Below are positions 21,641 through 48,230 of a stretch of DNA of 64,000 bases, one piece after another (the stretch's first letter is position 1; the number at the start of each line of letters is the position of its first letter). The DNA comes from Patescibacteria group bacterium (GTDB lineage Bacteria > Patescibacteriota > Minisyncoccia > Phycocordibacterales > UBA1550). The stretch covers positions 122,059 through 186,058 of the forward strand of contig JBBTWP010000001.1 in assembly GCA_038062675.1 (NCBI GenBank). The letters are read 5' to 3'. The position numbers and the translations under genes were made by a program. The notes beneath the pieces were generated by a model. That model was not told the DNA's origin, searched no databases, and saw only the letters and a list, made by a program, of their open reading frames with translations.

Positions 21641-21724
21641 ACGTTACAGTATATCATGATATTTTTTCTGAAGTAAGAATACCGAGGTGCTTGCTCAACA
21701 CTTTGTGGGGAAAGCGGTGTTTGC

Positions 21725-21753
21725 TTGACTGTTGTACTTTACTTTGGTAAAGT
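21725..21753 (+). promoter_or_regulatory. promoter (TTGACT-17-TAAAGT) overlapped by the palindromic operator ACTTTA-N6-TAAAGT
   Basis: TTGACT 21725-21730, TAAAGT 21748-21753. Palindrome 21736-21753, 6 nt before the ATG of the TrpR-like gene. Confidence 0.5.
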
Positions 21754-21759
21754 GGTCAT

Positions 21760-22074
21760 ATGGATTGGAGCCACAAAGAAAATAAACGGCTAATTCAGGC
21801 GATTTTGATACTCAAGACGTCAAAAGAAACGAGTGATTTTTTGCGTGACATTTTAACTGAAAAGGAAATCAAAGAAATAGCGAGGCGACTACAAGCCGCG
21901 GAAATGCTTTCAAAAAACATTCTTTACTCGGAAATAGCGAGGGAAACCGGATTTAGTTCCACTACTATAGCTCGCGTTTCAAAATGGCTAAACAATGGCA
22001 AGGGGGGCTACAAAAACATCCTCGACAAACTCAGCCATCATGATTCCGTCCAAAAAAAGAGAGAGCTGTCTTGA
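21760..22074 (+). CDS. TrpR-like YerC/YecD family DNA-binding protein
   Basis: IARETGFSSTTIARVSKWLNNGKGGY helix-turn-helix typical of the Trp repressor/YerC family, 104 aa. Confidence 0.6.
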   Translation: MDWSHKENKRLIQAILILKTSKETSDFLRDILTEKEIKEIARRLQAAEMLSKNILYSEIARETGFSSTTIARVSKWLNNGKGGYKNILDKLSHHDSVQKKRELS

Positions 22075-22184
22075 TGTATTTTATTTCGCATAAAAACAAC
22101 TCTCTCCTTTGTTGGAGAAGGCTACTCATTGCCCGCCTAACAACAAAGTGGCAAATTACAGTTCTTTATTAAAAGGAGTAAGAA

Positions 22185-22859
22185 ATGGAAAATATCTCAT
22201 TGATTCGATATTCACCCGACAGTAATGATTACTTACTCACTGCGCAGCTTGTCGAATGCTACCGCGATGTATTCGCGGACACCCCATGGAATGAATGGCT
22301 TAAGTGCTCGAAATGTGGGAAGTATTGGGGAGTAAAAGATCAAGGCCTTCTCGCCTCACTCAATTTTCGTCACTGCGACATACCACTCGTGGACTTCTGG
22401 TCGAGAGAACAGGTTCTTTTTGACCTTCGTCACGAGATTATTTCAGGATCTTCTTGCTGGCTTGCAATGAGCAACAAAACAGTTGTTGGTTTTTGTTGGG
22501 GTTATCCTATAAATATCTCCGATCTTGAAACAAAGCTCGGTGTTTCGTTTAACACTGAGCTTGAATATAACTTTGGAACTTCTGGACTAGCTGCTTACCA
22601 AGACGAAGTTGGTGTCCTTTCTGCATACCGAGGTCGCAAGATCGCAAAAGCAATGATCATTCATCGCCTGAATGATTTTCTTACACAAGGTCTGCAGATT
22701 GGCATAGTGAGAACGAGGCAAAAACCTGAACCATCCGAAACGTTCATGTGGTATACACAGAAATTAGGTTACAAAATTCTCGCCAACTATCCAAACGATG
22801 ACGGTAGAGTGATTTTAGTCCGACAACTTTCTGGACTAAAAGAACTTCTCACCTCTTAG
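22185..22859 (+). CDS. GNAT-like acetyltransferase (putative)
   Basis: AYRGRKIAKAMI resembles GNAT motif A. One CxxC near the N-terminus. Confidence 0.4.
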   Translation: MENISLIRYSPDSNDYLLTAQLVECYRDVFADTPWNEWLKCSKCGKYWGVKDQGLLASLNFRHCDIPLVDFWSREQVLFDLRHEIISGSSCWLAMSNKTVVGFCWGYPINISDLETKLGVSFNTELEYNFGTSGLAAYQDEVGVLSAYRGRKIAKAMIIHRLNDFLTQGLQIGIVRTRQKPEPSETFMWYTQKLGYKILANYPNDDGRVILVRQLSGLKELLTS

Positions 22860-22879
22860 CACAACAGCCTTGCGTAATT

Positions 22880-23704
22880 TTACGCAAGGCTGTTTTTTTT
22901 CTCCCCCAACAAAAAAGCCTCACAGGCAATTTCTTTTCGGTTTCGAGCAAAAAGAATCACCCCATCTTTTTCAGTGTAGATTTCTTTTTTCCCATCAATT
23001 CCGATGATTTGCCCTGCCAATACTTCCTCAAAATCGTTAAAAGACTTAGCTAGTGTGAAACTGCTTGTTTTTGTAATATATATCTCATACATACGCAGAT
23101 AGGATTGCCTTTGAGGGGTCGTATCGTTCGCTATATGCCCACGAGATTTAAGGAACGCAAAAATGCTTTTCTCTGCCACTCGCGATGACTCAGGGTCGCC
23201 AAAATAACCACACTCAACACAAACCCCAATTTTCCCCAGGCTGTTCATGTAGTAGTCAGTTCCGCCTGGCTCTACTGTATCAAAACCGGACACAACAAGA
23301 CTGATTGGCAAATACTCTACAATTCCCTTTGCATTTGATTCACAAATAACGAATGGTGTACTATTTGGCGTACGGCTTGCATGTATATCCAAAAGTGCAT
23401 CAGATTGGTCAAGGTATTTTTTAATAAGTTGCGCACGCGCATATTCATAGCTCGTTTTTTCTTCTTCTGACAACATAAAATCGGGCTTAAACATTCTGTT
23501 TAAGTTAGTCTCAACAAATCGGGCATTGGATGCAATGGCCCGCGGATTACCATATCCAAAAAAAACTTGTCCTTTCTCTATTTGCAAAGTAGGCAAAATT
23601 TTTTTAAATGCCTCAATCCCTGCGCGCTCATCACCATGAACACCCGCAAGCACTACGCTTGTGGGACCCACGTCTTTTCCTTTCAATTGAATAAATTCTT
23701 CCAC
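22880..23704 (-). CDS. succinylglutamate desuccinylase/aspartoacylase (AstE/AspA) family zinc hydrolase
   Basis: VLAGVHGDERAGIEA N-terminal motif, second His cluster near DIHAS. Confidence 0.65.
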   Translation of the reverse strand: MEEFIQLKGKDVGPTSVVLAGVHGDERAGIEAFKKILPTLQIEKGQVFFGYGNPRAIASNARFVETNLNRMFKPDFMLSEEEKTSYEYARAQLIKKYLDQSDALLDIHASRTPNSTPFVICESNAKGIVEYLPISLVVSGFDTVEPGGTDYYMNSLGKIGVCVECGYFGDPESSRVAEKSIFAFLKSRGHIANDTTPQRQSYLRMYEIYITKTSSFTLAKSFNDFEEVLAGQIIGIDGKKEIYTEKDGVILFARNRKEIACEAFLLGEKKNSLA

Positions 23705-23710
23705 TGATCT

Positions 23711-23728
23711 ACTTTATCAAAGTAAAGT
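23711..23728. promoter_or_regulatory. second copy of the ACTTTA-N6-TAAAGT palindrome
   Basis: ACTTTATCAAAGTAAAGT, immediately upstream of the minus-strand AstE/AspA start. Confidence 0.45.
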
Positions 23729-23765: not shown

Positions 23766-23797
23766 AAAAAAGGCTCGCGCGGAGCGAGCCTTTAAAA
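23766..23797 (-). terminator. intrinsic terminator (bidirectional)
   Basis: GGCTCGC-GCGGA-GCGAGCC flanked by A6 and T3A6. Confidence 0.6.
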
Positions 23798-25197: not shown

Positions 25198-25902
25198 TTA
25201 AATTAAGTAGTCTTCAAGTTCTAGTTCCTCGCGCAGAATTTCAGCCGCGTGCAAACCACTGACAACTCTCTTGTTAGGCATGCACCGCGAACGTAAATCT
25301 GGATTTGAAGAAATAATTTGCAAGAAATCCGCCACACCACCCGTCCCCGCAATAGGAACAAGATATTTAAGTGGATTACCAGACTTCAACAGATGCTCAT
25401 TGATTTTAAGTATGTGCGCACACTCAGTCAACGTCCCTGCCCCTCCCGCACATACTATCACACCATCAAGCAAATTAGCAAAAATTGGGCTTTCATCACC
25501 CCAATTACTTTGCCCAACCAAAGGTCCGACACAAAATGAGAGATCGAGATGTTCTTCGCCGAGGGCATGCTTTTTACCGACAAGAGGATATACTCCTATT
25601 GTTTTCAAACCATACTCTTTAGCTTTCCTACTGGCAATAAAGGGCACGCCCCATTTTGTTCCACCAGTTAATACAGCAATACGATAATCTCGAAGCAAGC
25701 CAATGGCTTCGCCGATTATTTTTGTTTCAACATTTTGAACAATTTTCTCGTATTCGTTTTGAAGAGGGTCGTCTTTACTAATACCGCTTAAGCTGGTGCT
25801 TGCGCCTCCAGAAAAAGCAACAATTTTGTGAATTCCGTGTTTATGCTTAAACTCTTCAACAATCAACGAATAGTCTTCTTTTCCACAAATACTAATAACC
25901 AT
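25198..25902 (-). CDS. LOG/TIGR00725-like Rossmann-fold protein
   Basis: AGGAGTLTE (PGGxGTxxE-like) and an earlier GG-rich loop. Confidence 0.5.
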   Translation of the reverse strand: MVISICGKEDYSLIVEEFKHKHGIHKIVAFSGGASTSLSGISKDDPLQNEYEKIVQNVETKIIGEAIGLLRDYRIAVLTGGTKWGVPFIASRKAKEYGLKTIGVYPLVGKKHALGEEHLDLSFCVGPLVGQSNWGDESPIFANLLDGVIVCAGGAGTLTECAHILKINEHLLKSGNPLKYLVPIAGTGGVADFLQIISSNPDLRSRCMPNKRVVSGLHAAEILREELELEDYLI

Positions 25903-47946: not shown

Positions 47947-48230
47947 CTATCTATATATCATATTTTTGCCCAAAAAGCAAGGGCTGGCATGGGGAAAACT
48001 TTGAGAATAGGCACGAAATGCTGGATTTTGTTGGAAAGTCGGTGGTGCAGGGGTGTCATGGTGCCGGAATACAACTTATTGACTTCGCAAAGGGTTTGCA
48101 CTGTATGCCCGATTATGATAAAATGCAAATAGGAGTATGCAATAATAACTTACGTGGTGCTCTGGTGTTCCCACAGAGGATCTGTGACTTAAGCTAGAGA
48201 CTGACACTGCGTGAGACCGCTACTTCTAAC

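Follow-up and report, generated by a model that had tools for sequence, protein, structure and literature searches.

HisR is a TrpR-family histidine repressor that is encoded by yerC in Bacillus subtilis (Ashniev et al. 2022, PMC9413887), and in this article we describe two palindromic sequences that are very probably operators for a HisR protein of Patescibacteria. They are located in a stretch of 64,000 nucleotides from a Patescibacteria group bacterium (contig JBBTWP010000001.1, positions 122,059 to 186,058), referred to below as the window, where one of them precedes a gene for a 104-aa TrpR-like protein and the other precedes a gene for a deacylase-like protein of the AstE/AspA family. 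The published analysis of HisR regulons covers 492 genomes, including Firmicutes, Actinobacteria and Synergistetes, and Patescibacteria are not among them (PMC9413887). The same work gives the operator consensus as cacTTTAnnnnnnTAAAgtg, reports that about half of the hisR genes are autoregulated, and finds that purified Ruminococcus gnavus HisR binds its site only with histidine; a structural definition of the effector pocket is still to come (PMC9413887). Nearly all of the described regulons consist of histidine biosynthesis or transport genes, and in four Lactobacillales genomes the regulon is tdcP-tdcA-tyrT, with no his genes (PMC9413887).

The locus in the window shares with these regulons the TIGR02531 family of the regulator, the ACTTTA-N6-TAAAGT core of the operator, the location of the operator in promoter regions, and the predicted autoregulation of hisR, which is frequent in those regulons (PMC9413887). 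It differs from them in the phylum, and also in its predicted targets, which are an acyltransferase-like gene of the GNAT type and an AstE/AspA-family deacylase gene instead of the his operon, hisXYZ and yuiF. Moreover, the operator doubles here as the -10 hexamer of predicted leaderless promoters, about 40% of the Patescibacteria species have two abutting operators over the -35 and -10 hexamers, and Patescibacteria HisR carries a His-rich C-terminal extension, which is absent from the Firmicutes HisR proteins of solved structure. The other obvious comparison is with Escherichia coli TrpR and the operator of the autoregulated trpR gene, where we find the same TrpR fold, autoregulation, and a dimer that depends on a corepressor (as would be expected here) and sits on a palindrome overlapping the promoter. 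However, the operator of TrpR has a different sequence (TGTACTnGTnnACnAGTACA) and the Patescibacteria protein fails the TrpR equivalog model (TIGR01321, 31.9 bits compared to a cutoff of 67.25), and on these grounds we rejected an assignment to TrpR proper. The regulator-operator pair is already known, and what is new is the phylum, the targets, and the promoter layout.

A search of the literature library found no paper joining HisR with Patescibacteria. To our knowledge, very little has been learned about how transcription is controlled in Patescibacteria (the candidate phyla radiation), which have tiny genomes and take amino acids from their hosts. Few confident assignments of a regulator to its operator and targets are possible for these bacteria; the one proposed here is among them and would extend the HisR regulon beyond the his genes. 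It would also tie to histidine supply two enzyme families that are widespread in Patescibacteria, namely the AstE/AspA-like deacylases (more than 600 homologues) and the Cys-rich GNAT proteins, and such a link narrows the search for the substrates of both.

The regulator and two palindromes in promoters

The 104-aa protein is a member of the YerC/YecD type of the TrpR family. It matches the Pfam family Trp_repressor with 77 bits and passes the NCBIfam model TIGR02531 (yecD_yerC) with 74.1 bits, the cutoff being 42.2. Its best match in PDB is 3G1C, the HisR of Eubacterium eligens, other top matches (3FRW and 3KOR) are likewise of the HisR type, and the identity of about 40% to tested or solved HisR proteins reaches over the N-terminal helices too. 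A 100% identical protein was found in a Patescibacteria metagenome-assembled genome (MAG), and among the 120 homologues listed those with a source name all come from Patescibacteria-type or unclassified MAGs.

An earlier sequence-only reading of the window reported perfect 6-bp inverted repeats with a 6-bp spacer upstream of the TrpR-like gene and of the AstE/AspA-like gene, and inspection of the sequence confirmed both at their positions (Table 1). Site 1 is ACTTTACTTTGGTAAAGT (ACTTTA-CTTTGG-TAAAGT) and site 2 is ACTTTATCAAAGTAAAGT, which reads ACTTTACTTTGATAAAGT (ACTTTA-CTTTGA-TAAAGT) on the minus strand, towards its gene, and is then identical to site 1 at 17 of 18 positions, spacer included. 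Both sites match all 12 core positions of the published consensus cacTTTAnnnnnnTAAAgtg (cacTTTA-N6-TAAAgtg). The exact motif ACTTTA-N6-TAAAGT occurs twice in the window, that is, at sites 1 and 2 only, where 0 occurrences are expected, and it appeared in 0 of 100 shuffles of the window that preserved dinucleotide frequencies. With as many as two mismatches permitted, the window contains no excess of the motif (3 found compared to 3.9 expected); consequently, the signal consists of the two perfect copies and their positions, and we limited all further work to sites that match exactly or nearly so and occupy promoter positions. A weight matrix made from 105 sites in related genomes detected no further site in the window with a score of more than 6 bits. 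A degenerate copy of the operator, TGTTTGCTTGACTGTTGT, is located upstream of site 1.

Site 1 overlaps the -10 hexamer of a TTGACT-17-TAAAGT promoter and ends 6 nt before the ATG of hisR, as the sequence-only reading had it, and the promoter is listed by the promoter scan with a 17-nt spacer and a TG extended -10. Site 2 also ends 6 nt before a start codon, in this case the GTG of the minus-strand AstE/AspA-like open reading frame (ORF). Both promoters are of the sigma-70 type, with TTGACT or TTGCTA as the -35 hexamer, a spacer of 17 nt, TGn, and TAAAGT as the -10 hexamer. The flanks of the two upstream regions align as well, following the pattern GCTTG...T-ACTTTACTTTGrTAAAGT-6 nt-start with GCTTG at the -35 hexamer, which indicates that hisR and the AstE-like gene share a whole promoter-operator design that goes beyond the palindrome. 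The fixed gap of 6 nt between the -10 hexamer and the start codon would place the start of transcription at or beside the start codon, and the hisR and AstE-like transcripts are therefore probably leaderless. In the 110-nt gap between hisR and the GNAT-like gene that follows it, the promoter and terminator scan found no promoter-like or terminator-like site, so the GNAT-like gene should be co-transcribed from the operator-controlled hisR promoter; its control by the regulator had been suggested as a possibility from the sequence and gains support from this arrangement.

Table 1. Coordinates of the features of the hisR region and of two further features of the window
Feature	Position	Strand	Basis and remarks
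Degenerate upstream copy of the operator, TGTTTGCTTGACTGTTGT	21718-21735		
-35 hexamer TTGACT, hisR promoter	21725-21730	+	Sequence, promoter scan
Putative HisR operator 1 (site 1)	21736-21753	.	TAAAGT, the right half (21748-21753), serves as -10 hexamer and has TGn before it (extended -10)
hisR, 104-aa YerC/YecD-type TrpR-family repressor	21760-22074	+	Pfam, NCBIfam, PDB matches; ATG at 21760
Two consecutive His codons CAT CAT	22036-22041	+	10 codons before the hisR stop
Antiterminator-like helix, 5' strand	22051-22077	+	Comprises the hisR stop and the 8 codons before it; GAGAGAG core at 22059-22065
Antiterminator-like helix, 3' strand	22088-22114	+	Core CTCTCTC 22100-22106; in relatives also the terminator 5' arm
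Terminator 3'-arm remnant GGAGAAGG	22114-22121	+	Two mismatches, U-run gone
Conserved leader of the second gene	22128-22178	+	Hairpin ATTGCC...GGCAAAT 22128-22156; GTTCTTTA 22161-22168; Shine-Dalgarno AAGGAG 22173-22178
GNAT-fold acyltransferase-like gene, second in the hisR operon	22185-22859	+	Weak Pfam matches, model, Foldseek
Intrinsic terminator, 14-bp stem and T-run, ends the hisR-GNAT transcript	22863-22894	+	Overlaps the 3' end of the convergent AstE-like gene
AstE/AspA-family zinc deacylase-like gene, 274 aa	22880-23704	-	Pfam; GTG start at 23704
Putative HisR operator 2 (site 2)	23711-23728	.	Minus-strand reading: -10 at 23716-23711, -35 TTGCTA at 23739-23734
hisS terminator	23769-23793	-	Separates the AstE-like promoter as its own transcription unit
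SLOG/LDcluster4-family protein	25198-25902	-	Directly upstream of hisS
DUF3800-V RNA	48131-48227	+	72.3 bits; sole Rfam match above gathering score in the window

Conservation of the putative operator and competing explanations

Related loci were collected by scanning one genome per species, which gave 80 Patescibacteria loci with HisR proteins of 54-67% identity; flanks of up to 10 kb could be read, amounting to about 800 kb in all. A site with at most two mismatches is found upstream of hisR in 74 of the 78 usable loci, it ends exactly 6 nt before the hisR start codon in 60 of those 74, and in 69 of them a TTGACA-like -35 hexamer is located 16-18 nt from TAAAGT. Conservation of the site at the same promoter position is what would be expected from autorepression by the YerC-like protein, which the sequence-only reading had proposed. 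In 31 of the 74 species a second complete palindrome overlies the -35 hexamer, with ACTTTAcTTGACtAAAGT directly followed by ACTTTActttGaTAAAGT and the centres of the two palindromes 18 bp apart (L018, L025, L026, L034, L039 and L073 are among these double-operator loci).

The AstE-like gene gives a similar picture. The site precedes 25 of the 31 AstE-like genes that adjoin hisR, mostly with the same layout of -35 hexamer, -10 hexamer and 6-nt gap; two genes that lack it, those of L072 and L073, are located after hisR on its own strand and apparently belong to the hisR operon. An independent sample was available in 80 metagenome loci fetched with the AstE-like alignment, in which 52 of the 74 usable AstE-like genes have the site upstream. 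Among the metagenome loci with at least 2.5 kb of flank, the site is present in 28 of 30 with an adjacent hisR and in 0 of 8 without hisR. These counts speak for the proposed control of the AstE/AspA gene. Throughout the 800 kb there are 107 sites with at most one mismatch, 59 of them exact, and all but four are located at hisR or at the convergent gene for the AstE-like protein of about 275 aa. The palindrome is therefore nearly absent from other places and retained at the orthologues of both genes, the opposite of a motif scattered at random or confined to the window.

We consider it very likely that the palindromes are HisR operators in the promoters of the hisR-GNAT operon and of the AstE-like gene, and that HisR represses both. 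The placement of the sites and their co-occurrence with hisR can be read from the genomes, and from these we infer binding and the direction of regulation. A HisR dimer on the operator would occlude the -10 hexamer and the promoter spacer and so block RNA polymerase, the right half-site being the -10 hexamer itself and the left half-site filling the spacer. Repression of the hisR-GNAT operon would amount to autoregulation, and the convergent gene for the AstE/AspA-family deacylase would be the second target. L-histidine is probably the corepressor, by analogy with the HisR of R. gnavus; since that protein needs histidine, both units would here be switched on when histidine is scarce. AstE/AspA-type enzymes (AstE, aspartoacylase, DoeB) act on amino acids whose carboxylate is free and take off their N-acyl group, which makes the release of histidine from an acylated form reasonable, though a guess. 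Our working guess is that the deacylase frees histidine that is N-acylated or bound in a peptide linkage, and this would serve as salvage in an organism with little biosynthesis. The small regulon that the sequence-only reading envisaged is supported by these results, but its description as uncharacterised does not hold for the regulator, as YerC is the already described HisR with the same consensus (PMC9413887).

Several observations weigh against this interpretation. The recognition helix of the protein differs from that of Firmicutes HisR (SSTTIARVSKWL compared to STATISRVNRSL). The targets are outside histidine biosynthesis and transport, unlike those of nearly every described HisR regulon, and because they are not his genes the role of histidine as the effector is an extrapolation. 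Two AstE-like genes, in L090 and L163, have an adjacent hisR but no site. The AstE-like gene of the window starts with GTG, a codon poorly suited to initiation on a leaderless mRNA. In addition, the assignment of HisR operators in Patescibacteria is a computational one, and it covers 64 kb of the genome in question, so that the regulon may be larger.

The effector is also the point at which the most serious alternative arises. The HisR homologue and its operators could be real while the ligand is something other than free histidine, for example an N-acyl amino acid or a substrate or product of the GNAT-like or AstE-like protein. The ligand might also release HisR from DNA instead of recruiting it, and the regulon would then be a catabolic or detoxification module and no response to histidine starvation. 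This alternative would agree with targets that comprise a GNAT and a deacylase and no his genes, with a gene after hisR that varies among unrelated families, and with the facts that the effector pocket of HisR is still structurally undefined and that the Lactobacillales regulon of four genomes is tdcP-tdcA-tyrT (PMC9413887). We nevertheless regard it as unlikely: hisG, hisS and tRNA-His genes recur beside hisR, a run of His codons in a protein whose body is nearly free of His points to histidine supply, and the identity of about 40% to tested or solved HisR proteins covers the N-terminal helices as well.

Two other explanations dispense with HisR altogether. The shared 18-mer could be mere promoter architecture, arising from a duplicated cassette or from a -10 hexamer and spacer typical of the lineage, with no repressor involved. 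The right half-site is indeed the -10 hexamer, and the likeness of the spacers (TTTGr) stems partly from the TGn of the extended -10. However, ACTTTA sits in the promoter spacer, which is information-free in promoters, and yet this left half-site is 96-99% conserved in the weight matrix of the related sites. The concentration of the full palindrome at hisR and AstE-like genes in the 800 kb, without a further site in the window, and its disappearance from AstE-like genes that have no adjacent hisR are equally difficult to reconcile with promoter architecture, as are the second full palindrome over the -35 hexamer in 31 species and the identity of the motif with one validated for HisR in another phylum; we consider this explanation very improbable. 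The palindromes could instead be bound by a different transcription factor, with hisR a coincidental neighbour. A histidine kinase gene is divergent from hisR in the window and could be seen as pointing to such a factor, but the kinase is present in just 6 of the 80 loci, the site follows the adjacency of hisR (28 of 30 compared to 0 of 8), and the motif agrees exactly with the consensus of HisR, so that we assign this last explanation next to no probability.

A candidate histidine attenuator at the 3' end of hisR

Whichever gene comes next, the spacer of about 110 nt that follows hisR has a conserved sequence, and conservation extends into the end of hisR itself. At least two consecutive His codons (HH or HHH) are found within the last 20 hisR codons in 76 of 84 loci, while the remainder of HisR contains 0.17% His; in 61 loci the run, of 2-4 codons, ends 10-11 codons before the stop codon. 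The consensus of the C-terminal extension is K-L-H-H-H-N-S-I-Q-S-R-R-G-L-S. The last codons are conserved as nucleotides (CGG AGA GGG TTG TCT TGA) and show complementarity to a terminator in the spacer, namely to its 5' arm and its loop. Codon usage in the last five hisR codons is strongly skewed compared to the rest of the gene, with GGG used for Gly in 77% versus 11%, TTG for Leu in 85% versus 19%, and TCT for Ser in 81% versus 27%. The terminator of the relatives is a GC hairpin, AACCCCCTCC / GGAGGGGGTT, followed by a T-run, and is present in most of them; in relatives the U-run comes after the CCCCCTCC/GGAGGGGG hairpin.

Covariation of the two helices was assessed on an alignment of 54 sequences, using 500 shuffles and slid controls. 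In the antiterminator, formed by the hisR tail with the terminator 5' arm, 92.3% of the cells are paired (37-61% in the slid controls) and 9 of 15 pairs have changed on both sides, whereas in the terminator helix 93.1% of the cells are paired (slid controls 53-74%) and 6 of 10 pairs have changed on both sides; the covariation score was reached in 0 of 500 shuffles in either case. The stem variants follow the residues of the protein tail, RRG being found with CCCCCTCC, GKG with CCCCTTCC and EKG with CCCCTTCTC. Folding yields the antiterminator when the tail is free and the terminator when the region of a terminating ribosome is masked. We see the pattern again in 35 of 43 metagenome sequences that were sampled independently.

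Judging from this anatomy, we infer, with somewhat better than even confidence, that Patescibacteria hisR carries its own histidine attenuator, in which the C-terminal extension is a built-in leader peptide, and that together with the HisR operators it constitutes a two-layer histidine control. A ribosome stalled at the His codons would leave the last codons, GGAGAGGGTTGTCTT, free to pair with the terminator 5' arm, AAGCTAACCCCCTCC, and this pairing would allow read-through into the second gene, be it the GNAT, another enzyme, hisG or tRNA-His. A ribosome that has reached the stop codon would cover the last codons, and the terminator would form. The repressor would thus sense free histidine and the ribosome would sense charged tRNA-His. 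Ribosome-mediated attenuators of his operons (the hisL leader peptide, and candidate His attenuators of the Bacillus cereus group, PMC9413887) share with the relatives of the window a run of His codons upstream of an antiterminator helix and a terminator helix, of which one excludes the other, ahead of the gene under control. In contrast to those attenuators, the "leader peptide" is here the C-terminal tail of a full-length 104-aa repressor and no dedicated mini-ORF is involved, the His codons number just 2-4, and the terminator arm of the window is eroded. The attenuator design is probably new. If the attenuator is real, it represents a compact design in which one gene provides both the repressor and the leader peptide, and if the two-layer control is real, the genes under it would form a histidine-related module of acylation and deacylation.

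The window itself departs from the pattern. The antiterminator-like helix is kept (-20.5 kcal/mol for the fold of 22051-22135), but no terminator hairpin forms in the window once the hisR tail is left out of the fold, and the 3' arm is present as a remnant. In the closest relatives (70-72% identity) the terminator is still strong. The hairpins of L004 and L083, for comparison, have -24 to -25 kcal/mol and are followed by T-runs. The terminator thus appears from the sequence to be eroded in the window genome, and hisR and the GNAT gene are there probably just transcribed together.

A second conserved element is located between this region and the second gene. In about 55 related loci, whatever the family of the second gene, a leader is found that consists of covarying stems TTTGCC...GGCAAA with the loop TACCnnnnACAAAA, followed by GTTCTTTAAAAA and a Shine-Dalgarno sequence. 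The motif GTTCYTT[ATG]A occurs 110 times in 752 kb, and 38 of these occurrences fall within 200 nt after hisR. We considered GTTCTTTAAAAA both as a HisR half-site and as a promoter, and neither fits. Comparison with Rfam gave only sub-threshold matches to miRNA-like hairpins for the hisR-GNAT spacer of the window and no match in 14 related loci, and a small ORF in the spacer was rejected because its ATG is ATA in many species.

Predicted target proteins and neighbours of hisR

The product of the second gene has a GNAT fold according to its AlphaFold model, which has a pLDDT (predicted local distance difference test) score of 94.7 and matches many GNAT enzymes in Foldseek with probability 1.0 at 10-15% identity. 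Pfam matches to GNAT are weak for the protein itself, and its homologues carry PF00583. An attempt to derive the substrate from the fold failed as the Foldseek matches are generic GNATs. The acyl-CoA motif deviates in the alignment, with RGRKIA in place of R/Q-x-x-G-x-G/A. Within residues 25-64, no variation is seen at Cys41 and Cys44 (which form C-x2-C) or at Cys64, and almost none at Cys25 and His63. The segment from Cys41 to Cys64 is in an insert that ordinary GNATs lack, and this conserved Cys/His cluster suggests a zinc-binding knuckle.

The AstE-like protein matches AstE_AspA_cat (PF24827) with 75.2 bits compared to a cutoff of 25, and scores 44-57 bits with the equivalog models of AstE, aspartoacylase and DoeB, far below their cutoffs of 170-403. 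It has 640 homologues, the named ones being all from Patescibacteria or unclassified MAGs, and its solved relatives match weakly (the closest with E = 2e-6 to 1e-2). Residues H23, E26, R62, N69, R70, H108 and E164 are invariant in 25 homologues, and by analogy with aspartoacylase we take them to be zinc ligands and residues that bind the substrate carboxylate. In the public gene call (P0241, 263 aa) the start is placed 11 codons after the GTG. The GTG aligns with the ATG of orthologues, and the public call probably missed it on account of a leaderless mRNA without a Shine-Dalgarno sequence.

Pairs of an acyltransferase-fold enzyme and a deacylase of the AstE/AspA family, or a functionally equivalent one, are known in AstA/AstE, ArgA/ArgE and NAT8L/aspartoacylase, in which an amino acid is first N-acylated and later deacylated, and the two target proteins resemble them in the pairing. 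They differ in that no intermediate-processing enzymes are encoded here, both proteins are far below every equivalog model, and in other Patescibacteria species unrelated proteins replace the GNAT.

The gene directly after hisR is GNAT-like in 28 of the 80 species and varies otherwise, including a 295-aa family in 14 loci, a 317-aa family in 9, and others. The 295-aa family (for example, L004:6423-7310) and the 317-aa family (L016:3690-4643) have no match in Pfam, NCBIfam or PDB profiles. Judged by eye, they look like YbdK-type carboxylate-amine ligases and ATP-grasp enzymes or ligases; if this resemblance is real, all three alternatives after hisR would form amide bonds, the opposite of what the AstE-like hydrolase does.

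Some of the neighbours are related to histidine. Patescibacteria are thought to lack amino-acid biosynthesis, and it is thus unexpected that in 4 species the gene right after hisR is hisG (L023:2990-3931, L044:6402-7391, and also L029 and L069), encoding a long-form ATP phosphoribosyltransferase with HisG and HisG_C. In 5 species a tRNA-His (GTG) gene follows hisR (L017:6508-6580, L030:1026-1098, L052:6498-6570, L053:6392-6463 and L059:6496-6568). In four of these five, namely L017, L030, L052 and L059, the tRNA gene comes after a small conserved ORF (...SLGGxGxH...) and an additional hairpin, which may be another regulatory leader. The hisS gene is the immediate upstream neighbour of the AstE-like gene in the window, and three other loci have it close to hisR. 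The SLOG/LDcluster4-family gene of the window is probably in one operon with hisS, and in L034 the gene that follows hisR encodes a SLOG protein.

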